A DNA stretch of 64,000 bases from an uncultured Gammaproteobacteria bacterium (lineage in GTDB: Bacteria > Pseudomonadota > Gammaproteobacteria > Steroidobacterales > MnTg04): positions 22,016 to 86,015 of the forward strand of contig CAZMOM010000009.1 of the NCBI GenBank assembly GCA_964568075.1. The letters are read 5' to 3'. Below are positions 2,900 through 62,332 of this stretch, piece after piece. Under the pieces are notes generated by a model. That model made no database searches. It had not been told where the DNA came from and saw only the letters and a list, made by a program, of their open reading frames with translations. Position 1 is the first letter of the stretch; every line of letters begins with the position of its first letter. The translations under genes were made by a program, and so were the position numbers.

Positions 2900-4711
2900 A
2901 TGAAATTCCTGTATCCAATTGCTGTGGTAGCAACAGTACTCCCACAATCCGTTTTCGCTTGTTGTGACGACGACAAGTCCGTTTTGCAACCGCTGGTGGT
3001 AACGGCCACTCGCGAAGAGCAGGCCATTGAGCGAACGCTTGCCCCGATCCTGGTCATAAACCGCGAAGAAATAGAACTCAGTCTGGCCAGAGACCTCGCC
3101 GATTTATTGCGTTTTCATGCCGGTCTCGAAATCGCCCGGAATGGCGGGACCGGGAAAACCACCTCTTTGTTTGTCCGCGGCACAGACAGTAATCACGTCA
3201 TGGTCATGATTGACGGCGTAAAAATAAATCCGGGAACCATCGGTGGTGCTGCAATACAAAATATCCGCCCTGACATGATCCAGCGCATCGAGGTCATCAA
3301 GGGACCGCGGTCGAGTCTGTACGGCTCGGACGCGATTGGCGGCGTGATCAATATTATCACGCGCAGCACGGATCGTAATTATGAACTCAGCACCGGCGGC
3401 GGACACTTTGGCACGCGTGCTGGCAGCGCGATGATGGCCTGGCGGGGTGCCGGAAAATCTTTACAAGCGACGTTCAGCCGATTTGCGACAGACGGATTTC
3501 CGATTATGGCCGGCGGCACGATCGATCGCGGCTATGACAACAACACTGCCAGGATTCAGGCGGGCACCCGAGTGGGAGCGGCCGATCTTGGTTTCGCCTT
3601 CTGGCAGGCTTCGGGAACCAGTGAATACATGGATTTCCTTGGCACGCCGGTCAGCCAGGATTACCGAAACCGGACGACTTCAGTGACACTGGGCATGACG
3701 CCTGGCCAAAACTGGTCCAGCCGGCTGGTGGTAGCGCGAATCTCCGATGTGATTAGGCAAAATGACAGCGCGGACTATGTTCAGACCGACCGATCTACGC
3801 TGGACTGGTATAACAGCCTGGCAGTCAGCGACACACAGCGGCTTTCGGCGGGACTTTACCTATCGCGAGAGAACGCCGAGACCCTGTCGTTTGGATCCGG
3901 CTTCGACCGGGACCGGGACGACCAGGCCGTCTACGTTCAGGACCAGCTTAGCCTCGGAGATCATCAATTGTTGCTGGCTGCGCGGTTCAGCAATTTCGAC
4001 AGCTTCGGCAATATCACGACCTGGAACGCCGAGTACGGATTTCTGGCCGGCGGGCGACTGATGTTGACGGCATCTGCCGGTACCGGTTTTCGCGCGCCGG
4101 ACGCCACTGATCTGTTTGGGTTCGGTGGCAATCCTGATCTATTCGCGGAAGAGTCGGAAAACTTCGAGCTTGGCATTCGCTGGCTGATTAGTCAGAACAG
4201 CAGCGTGACATTGCACGCGTTTGACAACCGGATCGATAACCTTATCCAGTTTGTGATTTTCGACCCGATGACTTTTGCCGGCCAGAACCAGAATGTCTCG
4301 AAAGCCAGAATCAAAGGAATAGAAGCCACCTGGCGTCTCCGGAATAACGACTGGGACCTGCACAGCAGCGTTATCGTGCAGGATCCGAGAAACATCAGCG
4401 ACGACCAGCAGTTGTTGCGCCGATCAAAAAGAAGCGTGACGGCCGGGATCACCCGCCACCAGGGTGCATTTGATCTGGGAATCAATGTGCTGACAACAGA
4501 CGCGAGAAAGGATTTTGGATTCCCATCCGCTATTGATCTCGGCGGATACACGCTGGTCAATTTGCATAGCCGGTACCGCTTCAGCGAGCAGTGGCAAGTG
4601 CGCCTGAAAGTTGAAAACCTGCTAAATAAGGATTATCAGACAGCTTTTGGTTTTAACAGCTCTGAACGGGCTGCGTTCGTCACGGTAGACTACCTGGTGC
4701 CGGCCAAATAA
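2900..4711 (+). CDS. btuB: TonB-dependent vitamin B12 receptor
   Basis: Signal peptide, TonB box (LVVTATR), plug motifs (RGTDSNHVMVMIDGV, IQRIEVIKGPRSSLYGSDAIGGVINIIT), beta-barrel repeats. Follows a B12 riboswitch. AAGGAG RBS before ATG 2900. Confidence 0.9.
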   Translation: MKFLYPIAVVATVLPQSVFACCDDDKSVLQPLVVTATREEQAIERTLAPILVINREEIELSLARDLADLLRFHAGLEIARNGGTGKTTSLFVRGTDSNHVMVMIDGVKINPGTIGGAAIQNIRPDMIQRIEVIKGPRSSLYGSDAIGGVINIITRSTDRNYELSTGGGHFGTRAGSAMMAWRGAGKSLQATFSRFATDGFPIMAGGTIDRGYDNNTARIQAGTRVGAADLGFAFWQASGTSEYMDFLGTPVSQDYRNRTTSVTLGMTPGQNWSSRLVVARISDVIRQNDSADYVQTDRSTLDWYNSLAVSDTQRLSAGLYLSRENAETLSFGSGFDRDRDDQAVYVQDQLSLGDHQLLLAARFSNFDSFGNITTWNAEYGFLAGGRLMLTASAGTGFRAPDATDLFGFGGNPDLFAEESENFELGIRWLISQNSSVTLHAFDNRIDNLIQFVIFDPMTFAGQNQNVSKARIKGIEATWRLRNNDWDLHSSVIVQDPRNISDDQQLLRRSKRSVTAGITRHQGAFDLGINVLTTDARKDFGFPSAIDLGGYTLVNLHSRYRFSEQWQVRLKVENLLNKDYQTAFGFNSSERAAFVTVDYLVPAK

Positions 4712-56134: not shown

Positions 56135-57367
56135 ATGGATACGTATCTTGTCGGCGGTGCGGTTCGCGATCGTTATCTCGGGCAGCCGGCCCGTGAAAAG
56201 GATTGGGTCGTCACCCACGCTACGCCCGAGGAAATGCTGCGCCTTGGATACCGCCAGGTCGGCAAGGATTTTCCGGTATTCCTGCATCCGGAAACTGGTG
56301 AAGAATACGCGCTGGCCCGCACCGAGCGAAAAACCGGGCCCGGTTATACCGGTTTTGCCGTCGATGCCTCGCCCGAAGTAACCCTTGAGGAGGACTTGCG
56401 ACGACGCGATCTGACCATTAATGCGATGGCCATCGATGCCGACGGTAAGCTCATCGATCCCTGCGGCGGGCAAGCCGATCTGAGCGATCGAATTCTTCGC
56501 CATGTTTCGCCGGCATTCTCCGAGGACCCCGTTCGCCTTCTGCGGGTGGCGCGTTTCGCCGCTCGCTTTGCTGAATCAGGGTTTACGGTTGCGGACGAAA
56601 CCATGAAGCTCATGAGGCAAATGGTTGAAAACGGCGAAGTGGATGCACTGGTCGCGGAGCGTGTCTGGCAGGAAACCCAGGTTGCCCTCGGTGAATCACG
56701 GCCACAGGTTTTTTTCCAGATCCTTAAAGATTGTGGGGCGCTGGCGATACTGTTTCCGGAACTGGACGAACTGTTTGGCGTTCCGCAGGTCCCGAAATGG
56801 CATCCGGAAGTCGATTGCGGGGTCCACACGATGATGGCTCTGCAGACAGTCGCCGCGATGAGCGATGACCCCATCGTTCGGTTCGCGACACTGGTGCATG
56901 ATTTGGGCAAAGGCAAAACACCGGCCGATCAGTTGCCCCGCCATGTGGGCCATGAGAAACGAAGCGTCGAATTGATTCTCGGGATGGGAGCGAGACTGCG
57001 GATTCCCAATTCGTATATCGGACTGGCACGTCTGGTTGCCCGATATCATGGTCACTGCCATCGCGCACTCGAACTGAGACCGTCCACGCTTCTGCGATTG
57101 ATCGAAGCCACCGACGCTTGGCGCCGGCCGCAAAGGCTGGATGATTTTCTGATTGCCTGTGAGGCGGATTTTCGCGGCCGCAAAAATTTCACCGAAAAAA
57201 GTTACCCGCAGGCGAAACTCGTCAGGGAAATGGCGGATATCACCGGTCGAGTTTCCACCGACGACATCAATCTCGACGGGCTTAACGGCGAGGAAGTCGG
57301 TGCCAGGCTTACCGAAGCCCGTTGTCAGGCAATCGCCGCTGCCTTGAAAAAAAGATCTGCCGGTTAG
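56135..57367 (+). CDS. cca: CCA-adding enzyme with HD domain
   Basis: YLVGGAVRD, KDWVV, EEDLRRRDLTINAMA, EDPVRLLRVARF, HPEVDCG.H, LVHDLGKG. Confidence 0.97.
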   Translation: MDTYLVGGAVRDRYLGQPAREKDWVVTHATPEEMLRLGYRQVGKDFPVFLHPETGEEYALARTERKTGPGYTGFAVDASPEVTLEEDLRRRDLTINAMAIDADGKLIDPCGGQADLSDRILRHVSPAFSEDPVRLLRVARFAARFAESGFTVADETMKLMRQMVENGEVDALVAERVWQETQVALGESRPQVFFQILKDCGALAILFPELDELFGVPQVPKWHPEVDCGVHTMMALQTVAAMSDDPIVRFATLVHDLGKGKTPADQLPRHVGHEKRSVELILGMGARLRIPNSYIGLARLVARYHGHCHRALELRPSTLLRLIEATDAWRRPQRLDDFLIACEADFRGRKNFTEKSYPQAKLVREMADITGRVSTDDINLDGLNGEEVGARLTEARCQAIAAALKKRSAG

Positions 57368-57416
57368 GACGAGACCCGAAGCGCCAAGCGGGTCCGGGAG
57401 GGATTATCCCAACTAG

Positions 57417-57577
57417 CCCGGATTATTCATGAATCGTCGCGATGATTGCGCAGAGCATTGTTTGCACACGGTATTTTCTGACCGAGCGGAATATCCGTGT
57501 GTATTTTCGAGGGAGGAAAATCTCGTGTGCGGACAAGGATCAAGCAAGGGCGCGAGCGCATTCATGAATAAGCCGGG
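57417..57577. mobile_element. MITE-like element (161 bp) with 18-bp terminal inverted repeats, flanked by CTAG
   Basis: Left CCCGGATTATTCATGAAT (57417-57434) and right ATTCATGAATAAGCCGGG (57560-57577) match 17/18 as inverted repeats. CTAG at 57413-57416 and 57578-57581. No coding capacity; single copy in this window. Confidence 0.65.
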
Positions 57578-58369
57578 CTAGTACACGACCAAGATAACAA
57601 CCGCCAGGAACAACCGGTAAATAGCGAAAGGCAGCATGCCTGTCCGCTCGAGCAGCGACAGGAACCAACGGATGCAAAGCAGCGCGCTGCCGAAGGCAAT
57701 CAGCATCCCGGTGACCAGTCCCAGCCAGTCTACGGTTTCGCTCTGACTCATCAGCAACCGCAATTCCAACAGCGCCGCCAGTGAGATAACGGGGATGGAC
57801 AACAGAAAAGAAAATCGGGCCGCCGCGACACGATTCAGCCCCAACGCGAGTCCAGCCGTCATCGTGATCCCCGAGCGCGACGTTCCGGGTATCAGCGCTA
57901 GCGCCTGGGCCAGCCCAATCAGCGCCACGTCCCGAAGCCTGATGCTATATTCATCGCGGACTTTCCTGCCGGATATATCGGCAAACCAAAGGAGCAGCCC
58001 GAAGCCGGCGGTTGTGCCGGCAATCAGCAGCGGATCGCGCAACTGTTCTGAAAAACCATTAATCAGGAGACCGGCTACGCCGACCGGAATCGTGCCCAAT
58101 AACACCGCCCAGGCCAGTCTGGCTTCTGCCCGTTTTTCCCGGCCCGATACTGAACTCAGCCAGGCACTGCACATGCGACTGAGATCGGTGCGAAAATACC
58201 AGACCACTGCAAACAGCGTACCCAGGTGAACGGCGATATCAAATGGCAGCCCCTGATCCGACCAGCCCAATAGTCTTGGCAGCAATATCAGGTGGCCCGA
58301 GCTGGATATCGGCAAAAATTCGGTCAGTCCCTGTAACAGGGCAAGCCAGATGCTGTGCAGTAAATCCAA
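57578..58369 (-). CDS. uppP: undecaprenyl-diphosphate phosphatase
   Basis: LQGLTEFLPISSSGH, HLGT, AQALALIPGTSRSGIT, ARFSFLLSIP, FAIYR. Confidence 0.96.
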   Translation of the reverse strand: MDLLHSIWLALLQGLTEFLPISSSGHLILLPRLLGWSDQGLPFDIAVHLGTLFAVVWYFRTDLSRMCSAWLSSVSGREKRAEARLAWAVLLGTIPVGVAGLLINGFSEQLRDPLLIAGTTAGFGLLLWFADISGRKVRDEYSIRLRDVALIGLAQALALIPGTSRSGITMTAGLALGLNRVAAARFSFLLSIPVISLAALLELRLLMSQSETVDWLGLVTGMLIAFGSALLCIRWFLSLLERTGMLPFAIYRLFLAVVILVVY

Positions 58370-58378
58370 GCCGTTTCC

Positions 58379-59563
58379 TTACAGTCTGTCGCTGAAGTCG
58401 CGGAGGGCAAAACCCCGCAGCCGACTGCCGACCCCGCGGGTCAGCGCCATGACTTTGAACCGCTCGCCCATCTCTCCCGGCAGCGTAAGTGTTTTTACCT
58501 GGCTAGCCAATTCAAGCTGGCTGCGCTGGTCCTCGCTAAATTGCCTAGCCACAAGTTCATCCAGTCCCAGTGACATCAGCCAGTGCGCCTGTGTGGAGAA
58601 TCCTGCCAGGTTCAGCCCCTCCGCTTCGCCCGCCGCCGCGATCGCGCTGAAGTCGACCCAAGCCGTAATATCCTGCAACCCGGGCCAAAAGAACGCATCG
58701 TCATGAGCACGATGCCGGTAATGACAAAGCAAGGTTCCGCCGACGCGGTCGGGATGATAGTACTCCTGGCGACTGAGACCATAATCAGAAATGCAAAACA
58801 TCCCCTCGCGCAGACACGATGCGACCGATCGCGTCCACGACACCAGGGTGGGGCACCATTCCGACTGGTAGCCGACAGGGTATTCATCGAGCGACCGCCC
58901 GAGACTCTCACCGACCGTGCGGGCTAATTTCTCCGACATTGCTACCCGGCGAAAACAAAAACGATCGCCGTCCAGCCCAACCACGACCCGCTGCAGCCCA
59001 TCGTGTCCAATAACGAATCGCTCAACCGGCAGGGCGTCCACAACTTCATTGGCCAGAATGCAGCCAAACAAAGGATATTCAGGCAAGCAATCCAGCCATT
59101 CGACGCGTGGCAATAAATGCGCAACGGCAGCGGCCAGCTTTTTCTGTTGCCGCTCACGAAGATCGGCGCTGACTTCAAGAATTAGATAGCGATCGGGCAG
59201 GCTGTCTATGCCCTCAAGCTCCAGCAGAACATCTGCCGCCATCACGCCGCTGCCGGCGCCCAGCTCCATGATCACCTTGCTGTGTCCATTACTGATCGCT
59301 GACAGCACGTCACGACATTGCCTGGCCAGACATCGCGAAAACAACGGTGAAATCTCCGGCGCAGTAACGAAATCGCCGGCTTCACCAAACTTGCTACTGC
59401 CCGCGCTGTAATATCCGAGCCCCGGCTCGTACAGAGCAAGACGCATGAATCGCTCAAACGAGATTACCCCGGTCGCACGGATCTCGTTGCGGATCAAGTC
59501 GCTCAACGCCTCACTAAGAATCTGAGCATCGCCGGCCGGTAACGGTAAACTGTGGGGGTTCAT
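58379..59563 (-). CDS. SAM-dependent methyltransferase, MidA/NDUFAF7 family
   Basis: FMRLALYEPGLGYY, GDFVTAPEISPLF, ELGAGSG, ANEVVDALP, DYG, QDITAWVDF, GEMGERFK. Confidence 0.92.
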   Translation of the reverse strand: MNPHSLPLPAGDAQILSEALSDLIRNEIRATGVISFERFMRLALYEPGLGYYSAGSSKFGEAGDFVTAPEISPLFSRCLARQCRDVLSAISNGHSKVIMELGAGSGVMAADVLLELEGIDSLPDRYLILEVSADLRERQQKKLAAAVAHLLPRVEWLDCLPEYPLFGCILANEVVDALPVERFVIGHDGLQRVVVGLDGDRFCFRRVAMSEKLARTVGESLGRSLDEYPVGYQSEWCPTLVSWTRSVASCLREGMFCISDYGLSRQEYYHPDRVGGTLLCHYRHRAHDDAFFWPGLQDITAWVDFSAIAAAGEAEGLNLAGFSTQAHWLMSLGLDELVARQFSEDQRSQLELASQVKTLTLPGEMGERFKVMALTRGVGSRLRGFALRDFSDRL

Positions 59564-59687
59564 ACAGGATCGGCTTCCGAACAAACAACCATGCAGACTT
59601 ATGACCTGCGTACGGTCGGGAGTGTATTGTAATCATCCGTGGACAGATTCCGTAATCACCCGGCGAGCAAAGGGCTACTGACAGACA

Positions 59688-60446
59688 ATGGACAACGATT
59701 TTAGCAGAGCGCTGGAAGGCAAAACCGTGCTTGTGACCGGAGCAGCGAAGCGTATCGGCGCCTCGCTCGTTAGCGAATTTCATCGTGCCGGAGCAAGTCT
59801 GTTCATTCATTTCCGCAGCTCCGCCGATCAGGCCACGGCGCTGGCCGCAAAACTCAACGGTCACCGGCCGGGCTCGGCATTCACTCTGCAGACCGACTTG
59901 AATAAGCCAGACGCGCCGACGCAATTGATTGACGAAATCAAACAATCGACCGGCAGATTGGATGTGCTGATCAATAACGCTTCCGACTTTTTTGCTACGC
60001 CGCTGGGGTCTGTTACTCAGTCCGACTGGGACAGTCTGATCAACAGTAATCTGCGTGGCCCGTTTTTTTTGAGCCAGGCCGCCGCACCCCTGCTGAGATC
60101 ATCGCGCGGGCTCATACTCAATATTCTGGATATTCATGCCAGCAAGCCGCTGCGCGACCACTCGGTTTATTGCATGGCTAAAGCCGGGCTTTCGATGATG
60201 ACGCGCGCGCTCGCGCAGGATCTTGCACCGGAAATCCGCGTTAACGGCATCGCGCCCGGGGCAATCGTCTGGCCCGAACAGAACATTTCCGAACAGGAAA
60301 GACAACGCATCGTCAGCCAGACGCCGATGGGCAGGACCGGCGATGTCGCTGACATTTCCGGTCTGGCTGTTTTTTTGGCTACGGATGCCGAATTCATCAC
60401 CGGCCAGGTTATCGCGGTTGACGGCGGACGCAGCGTAAGCGACTGA
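59688..60446 (+). CDS. folM: pteridine reductase / dihydromonapterin reductase-like SDR
   Basis: TGAAKRIG, LINNAS, YCMAK, VNGIAPG. Adjacent to folK/folB. Confidence 0.8.
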   Translation: MDNDFSRALEGKTVLVTGAAKRIGASLVSEFHRAGASLFIHFRSSADQATALAAKLNGHRPGSAFTLQTDLNKPDAPTQLIDEIKQSTGRLDVLINNASDFFATPLGSVTQSDWDSLINSNLRGPFFLSQAAAPLLRSSRGLILNILDIHASKPLRDHSVYCMAKAGLSMMTRALAQDLAPEIRVNGIAPGAIVWPEQNISEQERQRIVSQTPMGRTGDVADISGLAVFLATDAEFITGQVIAVDGGRSVSD

Positions 60447-60457
60447 GCGGCCAGCGA

Positions 60458-60946
60458 TCAAAGCGGCAGGCTCACCCGCTGGAGCGGGTGCCTCCCGGTA
60501 TCGAAGTGTTTCCACAAATCTCCATATGACTGCTCTCTTCCCGGGTGCAACATGGTCGGCCGCAGATCGGCCAAGGGTTTCAGCACATACGAACGTTGCA
60601 ATATCTCGGGTCGCGGAATCTCCAGTCCTTTTTCGCTGATCACGGCATCGCCATAAAGCAGCAGATCGAGATCCAGAGTTCTCGGCGCATGCCGCGGCAA
60701 GCTGCGGTCTCGCTGACATTGGTCCTCAATAAGTCTCAGATCACCCGCCAGCGTCTGCGGAGTCTGATCATTTTCGAATACCGCCACCAGGTTATAAAAA
60801 TCCTCGCCGTCAAATCCGACCGACGAATTCTTGTAGACCGGTGACAGATCGATGGCACCAAACCGTTCTCTCATCAGCGCCACGCCTTCGGCAAGAAAAC
60901 GTCTCGGCTCAGTGTTGCTGCCTACACTGACGAAGACCTCAGGCAT
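60458..60946 (-). CDS. folK: 2-amino-4-hydroxy-6-hydroxymethyldihydropteridine diphosphokinase
   Basis: VSVGSN, FYNLV, PRTLDLDLLLY, PRPEI..RSYVL.PL. Start re-called to ATG 60946. Confidence 0.92.
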   Translation of the reverse strand: MPEVFVSVGSNTEPRRFLAEGVALMRERFGAIDLSPVYKNSSVGFDGEDFYNLVAVFENDQTPQTLAGDLRLIEDQCQRDRSLPRHAPRTLDLDLLLYGDAVISEKGLEIPRPEILQRSYVLKPLADLRPTMLHPGREQSYGDLWKHFDTGRHPLQRVSLPL

Positions 60947-61304
60947 CGGTGTCGCCCCCGCCTCGCTCGATAATAATGCCGACTCCCGCTGCCCCTCGGA
61001 CGGCGCCCTGCTTGTTAACAGTGACCCGCACCCACGGAACGCAGAACTCACCGGTCACGATGCCGGCGACGGCCTCCGCCAGCGTCTCCACCAGTTGAAA
61101 ATTTGACACTTCGACAAAGGCAATAACGCGCTTGGCCACCTTTTTATAGTCCAGTGCGTCTGCTATCCGATCCGTGGCAGCTGCCTTGCGGTTGTCGCAG
61201 GCCATTTCGAGATCGATGCTGACCGTCTGACGGATACCGCGTTCCCAGTCAAATACTCCGATGGTTGTTTTCACTTTCAGGTCCCGCAAAAAAACGATAT
61301 CCAC
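60939..61304 (-). CDS. folB: dihydroneopterin aldolase
   Basis: DIVF..DL.V.T.IGV..WER, LDY, LVETLAE, K.GAV. Confidence 0.95.
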   Translation of the reverse strand: MDIVFLRDLKVKTTIGVFDWERGIRQTVSIDLEMACDNRKAAATDRIADALDYKKVAKRVIAFVEVSNFQLVETLAEAVAGIVTGEFCVPWVRVTVNKQGAVRGAAGVGIIIERGGGDTDA

Positions 61305-61306
61305 CT

Positions 61307-62332
61307 TCAGGCCTCCACGGTTTTGGGCGCCGGCGGTGTCAGCTGATCCAGCGGCCAGCGAGCGCGTGCGAGTATTTGTCCGGAATCGCTTTGCCCGGCC
61401 TGCATTCTGAGCAACCCGGTGTAGGCGATCATCGCGCCGTTATCGGTGCAAAAATTCGGTCTCGGATAATAGACCCGCCCGTCTACAGCCTGAATCGCGT
61501 CGGCCAGTTGCTTGCGCAGTTTGCGGTTAGCGCCGACCCCGCCGGCCACCACCAGGCTCTTTGTCCCTGTCTGCTTCACCGCCCGCAGTGATTTTCCGAC
61601 CAACGTATCGATTACGGCTTGCTCGAACGCACAGGCCAGGTTGGCACGGCTGACGTCGTCTTTTTTCGATTTCTGCCAGGCCAGCATGACCGCTGTCTTA
61701 AGACCCGAAAAACTGAATTCCAGACCAGGCCGGTCCATCATCGGTCGTGGCAAATCGATCTCGCCCCGGCTGCCTTCAGCCGCCAACTGCGCCAGCGCCG
61801 GCCCGCCCGGATAGGGCAACCCCAGCAATTTGGCGGTCTTGTCGAAAGCTTCGCCGGCGGCGTCATCGAGCGTCTCTCCCAAAACCTCGTACCGGCCCAG
61901 CCCCCGCACATCGACCAGCATCGTGTGGCCACCGGAAACCAGCAGCGCAATAAAAGGAAAGGCCGGCGGATTCGGCTCCAGCATCGCCACGAGCAGGTGG
62001 CCTTCCATATGATGCAGGCCCAGCGCGGGTATCTGCCAGCCATAGGCCAGGCTCCTGGCGACCGATGCGCCGACCATCAGCGCCCCGACCAGACCCGGTC
62101 CCGCCGTGTAAGCGATACCGTCGATACCACCACTCACCTGCTCCACCACCTCCCGCAACATGGGCGTCAGTTTTCTCACGTGGTCACGCGATGCCAGCTC
62201 CGGAACCACGCCCCCGTACTCGGCATGCAGGCTTATCTGCGAGTACAGGGAATCTGCGATCAGGCCTTGATCGCTGTCATAGACGGCAACCCCGGTTTCG
62301 TCACAGGAGGTCTCGATTCCCAATACCCGCAT
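61307..62332 (-). CDS. tsaD: tRNA N6-threonylcarbamoyltransferase
   Basis: [62 protein letters not shown]. Confidence 0.97.

Follow-up and report, generated by a model that had tools for sequence, protein, structure and literature searches.

The convergent genes cca and uppP are separated here by a 210-bp spacer, largely occupied by an imperfect palindrome, which raises the question of what this palindrome is and how it came to lie between two intact genes. Our sequence comparisons point, with a probability of about 0.88, to a non-coding 161-bp MITE derived from an insertion sequence (IS) of the IS1380 family, within a clade that targets YTAR sites, mostly CTAG. The original prediction, made from the letters of this stretch, had likewise proposed a non-autonomous transposable element of MITE type, and this part holds: the element exhibits terminal inverted repeats (TIRs) and a CTAG target-site duplication, it is small and has no credible open reading frame, and autonomous elements with the same ends exist in other genomes. 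It is real, fairly ordinary selfish DNA that explains the odd spacer and has damaged neither gene.

The element and its insertion site

All coordinates refer to the window, the whole 64-kb stretch of DNA that was analysed. The features of the locus are as follows.

56135 to 57367, plus strand: cca, CCA-adding tRNA nucleotidyltransferase with HD domain (Pfam PolyA_pol, PolyA_pol_RNAbd and HD)
57413 to 57416, no strand: left CTAG of the target-site duplication, read from the sequence; the commonest flank of short elements
57417 to 57434, plus strand: left TIR, CCCGGATTATTCATGAAT; the identical 18-mer bounds full-length IS1380-family elements
57425 to 57434, no strand: ATTCATGAAT, a 10-bp palindrome within the TIR, with a twin at 57560 to 57569 that is both a direct and an inverted repeat of it
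57435 to 57478, plus strand: internal hairpin arm A (CGTCGCGATGATTGCGCAGAG...GTATTTTC); arm B is its partner in the minimum-free-energy fold and the 18-copy consensus
57479 to 57515, plus strand: weakly paired hairpin apex (fold and consensus structure)
57516 to 57559, plus strand: internal hairpin arm B (GAAAATCTCGTGTGCGGACAAGG...GCGAGCGC; inverted-repeat search, fold and consensus structure)
57560 to 57577, minus strand: right TIR, reading ATTCATGAATAAGCCGGG on the plus and CCCGGCTTATTCATGAAT on the minus strand; 17 of 18 positions match the left TIR
57578 to 57581, no strand: right CTAG of the target-site duplication, of which 57578 to 57580 are the uppP TAG stop on the minus strand
57578 to 58369, minus strand: uppP (bacA), undecaprenyl-diphosphatase (open reading frame; Pfam BacA)

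The element thus spans 57417 to 57577, with CTAG on either side. Sequence and repeat search bear out the length of 161 bp, the 18-bp TIRs and the bracketing CTAGs that had been predicted, as well as the double occurrence of GTATTTTC. The single TIR mismatch is A/C at position 6, and with the CTAGs counted in, the repeat search returns an inverted repeat of 23 nt that is 96% complementary. Allowing up to three mismatches, the TIR 18-mer occurs in the 64-kb window at these two sites only, against a chance expectation of 0.10; one of 100 shuffles gave two sites. Open frames inside the element are limited to overlapping ones of 41-50 aa, which occur on both strands of the palindrome.

The left CTAG lies 46 nt from the cca stop. 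On the other side, the uppP frame ends with the TAG that reads as CTA at 57578-57580 on the plus strand, and the gene is intact, as had been proposed. In the mechanism we favour, an IS1380-family DDE transposase acting in trans would recognise the 18-bp ends, as identical ends on autonomous elements suggest, and integration would proceed through a staggered 4-bp cut in CTAG that is then duplicated; the duplication is visible in the flanks here and in relatives. As the TAG of the target is the uppP stop, duplication regenerates it, and the insertion is neutral for both convergent genes.

Relatives whose Cca is 59-76% identical carry cca and uppP in the same convergent arrangement, 14-70 bp apart and without the element. 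The closest relative at the locus (L121) has a UppP that is 70% identical, adjoined by a gene 76% identical to cca. Subtracting the element and one CTAG from the window's spacer leaves about 45 bp, which fits the range in these relatives. The predicted empty site is found in part: relatives without the element exist, but their UppP shares only about 70% identity and the stop codon at that site is not CTAG, and eight runs that contain the locus (X1-X8) gave no single-CTAG allele of the same species and no contig that skips the element. These runs are marine-sediment and marine metagenomes. Short-read contigs that encode a UppP identical to the window's break inside the element.

A contig from another run (L241, from Logan) is 99.6% identical to window positions 57542-61369, and its uppP side reads CTAG-CCCGGCTTATTCATGAAT-CGTCGCG; the TIR variant of the uppP side is followed there by arm A, not by arm B. 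In this near-identical strain, either the interior may have been inverted between the TIRs or one arm may have been converted to the other. Two small hairpins lie 3' of the cca stop, GACCCG-N10-CGGGTC (57373-57394) and GGGAT-T-ATCCC (57400-57410), and no T run follows either; both belong to the original short cca-uppP spacer, outside the element.

A conserved hairpin at gene ends

Scanning for the exact 18-mer gave at least 120 loci in a set of one genome per species and at least 120 in metagenome contigs, together at least 240. We calculate that chance alone would give about 35 matches in the 596 Gb searched. A few isolated matches may thus have arisen by chance; most have not, because a partner end and YTAR flanks are present. 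The matches listed from both scans include 176 short elements with both ends, mostly 26-320 bp long. Among these, 46 measure no more than 30 bp, nearly all of them the 26-bp palindrome CCCGGATTATTCATGAATAATCCGGG, and 96 measure 141-200 bp. CTAG stands on each side in 74 of the 176, followed in frequency by CTAA, TTAG and TTAA. Hosts among the matches listed include Nitrospira, Zetaproteobacteria, several Gammaproteobacteria, Planctomycetota, Acidobacteriota and Armatimonadota, among others, a list that errors in MAG binning may have inflated somewhat. The interior sequence is distinct in each host group. Over its whole length, the window's element is 80-88% identical to twelve copies, found in a Woeseia MAG, a Sedimenticola MAG and metagenome contigs; the Sedimenticola MAG (JALSTP01) holds several copies.

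The whole element is predicted to fold as one long hairpin, with free energies of -88.6 kcal/mol (z -9.5) for the plus strand and -73.3 kcal/mol (z -6.7) for the minus strand. The original prediction of a nested hairpin with a switchable core is supported for the long hairpin but not for the switch. Its proposed pairing of 57458-57470 with 57524-57536 has a predicted probability of 0.91-1.0, whereas the alternative helix 57465-57471/57495-57501 has an equilibrium probability of about 0, costs 11.5 kcal/mol to force and is not conserved in the 18-copy alignment. That alignment comprises copies of 159-161 bp, of gamma and zeta types, and gives a consensus hairpin of 52 pairs in which 95.7% of cells are paired and 22 of the 52 pairs show compensatory changes on both sides. 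None of 500 shuffles reaches any of these measures, and slid controls give 35-46% pairing.

The two strands are not equivalent. In all 18 copies, the more stable fold is that of the strand corresponding to the window's plus strand, with a mean advantage of 14.8 kcal/mol, and G.T wobbles outnumber A.C mismatches by 74 to 15. One strand also folds better in 48 of 49 copies of an unrelated 173-bp subfamily in Nitrospira. Close relatedness among many of the compared copies means that common descent, and not selection, may account for part of the asymmetry, although it is also present in more distant copies. The better-folding strand has no preferred orientation relative to the genes that read into the element (10 versus 11 and 17 versus 20).

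Could the copy at this site now serve the host, as a hairpin between cca and uppP that terminates transcription in both directions or affects RNA stability? Palindromic repeats such as ERIC, Correia and REP affect mRNA fate, and here the predicted hairpin is very stable on both strands and is conserved with compensatory changes. Moreover, in 64 of the 176 short elements (36%) the flanking TAG or TAA serves as the stop of an immediately adjacent open frame that is 100 codons or longer; 66 flanks are of this kind, compared with 37 and 18 for the two shifted reading frames. This proximity to stop codons arises, however, because the target CTAG itself contains TAG, and for the same reason such insertions are harmless to the gene, as at uppP. 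The main stem is followed by no U tract on either strand, and the element has no sigma-70-like promoter. A terminator scan of the element gave one small match in the apical region, within shuffle expectation, and Rfam, which the original prediction had named as a check, returned no relevant match at E <= 1 for 56500-58500. Together with the random orientation relative to genes, these data argue against a host-recruited terminator and against a riboswitch-like switch, and we regard the domestication that had been suggested as unlikely. The interior, one long imperfect hairpin conserved in the family, would more likely serve the life cycle of the element itself.

A further reading goes beyond regarding the hairpin as a by-product of two fused ends. 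The strand bias in two unrelated subfamilies, the excess of G.T over A.C and the compensatory changes, all combined with random gene orientation, raise the tentative possibility that the hairpin is under selection as one single strand. If so, the element would have an intrinsic single-stranded stage, either a DNA hairpin in IS1380-type transposition or replication or an element-encoded structured RNA, and would offer new insight into a transposase family of poorly known mechanism. The consistency of the asymmetry makes it a lead on how IS1380-type elements move.

Ends shared with IS1380-family elements

The metagenome scan yielded at least nine full-length elements of 1.45-2.5 kb that are bounded by the exact or near-exact 18-mer, mostly with CTAG on both sides. 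Each contains a single open reading frame of 450-508 aa. The six frames that were scanned score 295-404 bits on NCBIfam NF033539 (IS1380-family transposase; cutoff 180) and also match Pfam DDE_Tnp_1_4; BLASTP relates the other three to these six (31-84% identity). Pairwise identity among the nine transposases is 31-54%, with a single pair reaching 84%, and they share about 41-44% identity with IS1380 members carried on plasmids. At five more loci, where the contig ends within the IS, fragments of the same transposases adjoin the TIR.

An alignment of the nine transposases was then run against one genome per species, and the best 80 loci were taken. At 78 of these 80, elements of 1.42-1.71 kb have CCYGRAWWATTCAYGA-type ends that differ from the window's TIR at 0-5 positions. 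The duplications at the best 80 loci are CTAG/CTAG (27), CTAA/CTAA (8), TTAG/TTAG (6) and ATAG/ATAG (1), and 15 non-palindromic direct duplications flank full-length ISs; the 4-bp direct duplication at YTAR is genuine. Several genomes carry 4-7 full-length copies with different flanks. Hosts among the best 80 include Acidobacteriota, Chloroflexota, Nitrospira, Armatimonadota, Deltaproteobacteria, Myxococcota, Rokubacteria and a gammaproteobacterium.

Named members of the family have closely similar ends. ISPa33, which is plasmid-borne and annotated as IS1380-like, reads CTAG-CCCGGATTTCTCATGA...TCATGAGAAATCCGGG-CTAG, and an IS1380 element on a Pseudomonas putida plasmid begins CTAG-CCCGCATTTCTCACAG. 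The ISPa33 end CCCGGATTTCTCATGA matches CCCGGATTATTCATGA at 14 of 16 positions. The IS1380 family is described in ISfinder as having a duplication of 4-5 bp and ends beginning with CC; our element has the 4-bp CTAG and ends starting CCCGG, and the 78 IS loci likewise have a 4-bp duplication and ends of this kind.

The original prediction had instead pointed to IS5- or IS701-type elements as the source, and a MITE mobilised by such a transposase would leave similar traces, since the 4-bp YTAR or CTAG duplication is typical of IS5-group and IS701 elements as well. Published work describes YTAR targets for IS5 and IS711. Between the ends found here, however, every transposase is of the IS1380 family: nine complete and five partial elements among the metagenome loci listed, and 78 of the 80 best genome loci. 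No IS5- or IS701-type element was found among the at least 240 TIR loci, and on the transposases between these ends the scores for IS701 and IS4 fall well short of the model cutoffs. The ends also start with CC, as in the IS1380 family, and not with GG or GA, as in IS5. We consider an IS5 or IS701 origin very unlikely. Because the same ends bound IS1380 transposase genes, the element is most probably an IS1380-family MITE.

The cognate transposase with matching ends that had been called for thus exists, in other genomes. The 64-kb window contains no IS1380 gene. Run X1 gave only short conserved-motif matches to the two ISs tested, and runs X2-X4 contain contigs about 85-90% similar to one full-length element (L288). 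Between the full-length ISs sampled and the short elements, no subterminal similarity was found and only the 18-bp end is shared.

The element had also been called undescribed. An exact-sequence search of the literature library used found no paper with the TIR sequence, and a search for IS1380 together with MITE or CTAG found nothing relevant. The description is nevertheless true only in a narrow sense, as the parent IS family and ISPa33, with nearly the same ends, are already known.

Copies, nested insertions and known systems

Some short elements adjoin other mobile genes, and four of these were rejected as partners. At L067, an IS4-family element (3100-4663; 461-aa transposase) lies between TIR-like ends, in the centre of the 26-bp palindrome; it has ends of its own (GAATGGCAC...), its relatives have other flanks, and its 10-bp duplication is ATTCATGAAT. 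The host flanks outside that palindrome are themselves inverted repeats. At L039, the gene beside a TIR is a frameshifted IS1380 one from another clade of the family (ends CCCTGATTCCCGGATAAGG), nested within a short element; neither the TIR nor YTAR flanks are present in 80 relatives of this gene. An IS110-family gene at L110 is nested inside the 173-bp Nitrospira element. The fourth, a RAYT-like Y1 gene at L025, has its own inverted repeats and appears to form a nested cassette.

The nested ISs lie at L110:834-2180 (IS110 family) and, for the other-clade IS1380 elements with ends CCCTGATTCCCGGATAAGG or TCTTAACTCCCGG, at L039:5768-8000 and near position 1070 of L217 (Pseudomonadales copies). 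Other ISs thus seem to insert preferentially into these short palindromes, much as some ISs do into REPs. At L025:4564-5706, half an element is followed by a 279-aa frame that resembles Y1 (HUH, RAYT-type) transposases by eye and is bracketed by 25-bp inverted repeats (GGGTCAGGTCTTGAAAGTTGAATTC); next comes a stretch that resembles, also by eye, a fragment of a group II intron maturase. A 60-aa N-terminal piece had no Pfam match.

These observations touch on the possibility that the element is a REP- or REPIN-type palindrome mobilised by a RAYT (Y1 HUH transposase), which would account for a palindrome along the whole length, for the common 26-bp minimal form and for the Y1-like gene beside the half-element at L025. 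However, that gene carries 25-bp inverted repeats of its own and appears nested, and the transposase genes enclosed by identical ends are of the DDE type. Identical non-palindromic flanks are direct in 11 of the short elements among the matches listed and inverted in one, and the full-length ISs add 15 direct cases; HUH enzymes are not known to make such duplications. The GTAG head is absent as well. We regard mobilisation by a RAYT as highly improbable.

The element is multicopy, as the at least 240 loci indicate. In run X1, a marine-sediment sample like the source, words in the flanks have a depth of 60-78 and bins in the element 180-880, so that the element reaches 3-12 times the depth of its flanks. 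Three other X1 contigs (5.5-13.7 kb), putatively assigned to the same genome by their depth of 70-75, end in the element with different flanks. Runs X2-X8 exhibit the same pattern of excess depth and alternative flanks, and across X1-X8 the similarity of other copies to the window begins between 57413 and 57416, most often at 57413. A single-copy intrinsic hairpin or sRNA gene that resembles a MITE by accident would fit the one copy in the 64-kb window, but is refuted by the hundreds of copies elsewhere and by the depth excess and alternative flanks in eight runs, and can practically be dismissed.

In runs X2 and X8 (on window 57446-57556) and at loci L021, L046, L111 and L328, the same subfamily includes shortened forms of 58-97 bp with internal deletions, as well as joints that skip 79-104 bp; both ends and parts of the arms are kept. 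A deletion between the two copies of ATTCATGAAT would yield exactly the 26-bp palindrome CCCGGATTATTCATGAATAATCCGGG that is seen 46 times in other genomes. The 26-bp form may therefore arise by deletion between the 10-bp direct repeats, much as solo LTRs do.

Viral contigs gave no match to the TIR. Among plasmids the whole element had no match, and the TIR had only partial matches of 18 nt, on Persicobacter plasmids. In Persicobacter sp. JZB09, a cultured Bacteroidota strain, TTAG-CCCGGATTATTCATG occurs in four replicons (L238 and L239 among the plasmids); the sequence downstream differs in the two copies that were read, with no clear second end. These copies are possibly decayed or truncated. 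At four loci in Planctomycetota (L033, L064, L077 and L117), another long hairpin, rich in GC (TAGCCCGAAGCGCAAGCGAGGG...CCCTCGCTTGCGCTTCGGGCTA), follows the TIR, and a second TIR was not found within several kb.

Short palindromes of 26 to about 320 bp that occur in many phyla are tied here to one clade of IS1380 transposases with YTAR/CTAG targets. These repeats break metagenome assemblies and attract other insertion sequences.

The closest known systems are the YTAR-targeting IS1380 ISs. Their ends, which the window's element matches, enclose a gene for an IS1380-family transposase. With ISPa33 and its relatives the element shares nearly the same ends (14 of 16 positions for ISPa33) and the 4-bp CTAG duplication, and full-length environmental relatives carry the window's exact 18-mer. 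Unlike these ISs, the element is only 161 bp long and has no transposase gene, and its interior hairpin is unrelated to the IS interiors sampled.

By the membership tests applied, the element is neither an IS5/IS701 derivative nor a REP/RAYT element, an intrinsic terminator or a member of an Rfam family. It resembles REPs and REPINs in forming short extragenic palindromes with a common minimal unit that are favoured landing sites for other ISs. In contrast to them, this family has target duplications and DDE-type partners, has no GTAG head and does not flank RAYT genes.

The Correia elements of Neisseria and the ERIC elements of enterobacteria are imperfect palindromes of about 100-160 bp with TIRs, intergenic and often at gene ends, which are multicopy and have deletion derivatives. 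The family described here is likewise palindromic over its whole length, with TIRs, many copies and shorter deletion derivatives. Correia and ERIC elements duplicate TA, whereas this family has a 4-bp YTAR duplication and no sequence relationship to either. To our knowledge no transposase has been identified for Correia or ERIC, while the present family has an identifiable IS1380 partner.
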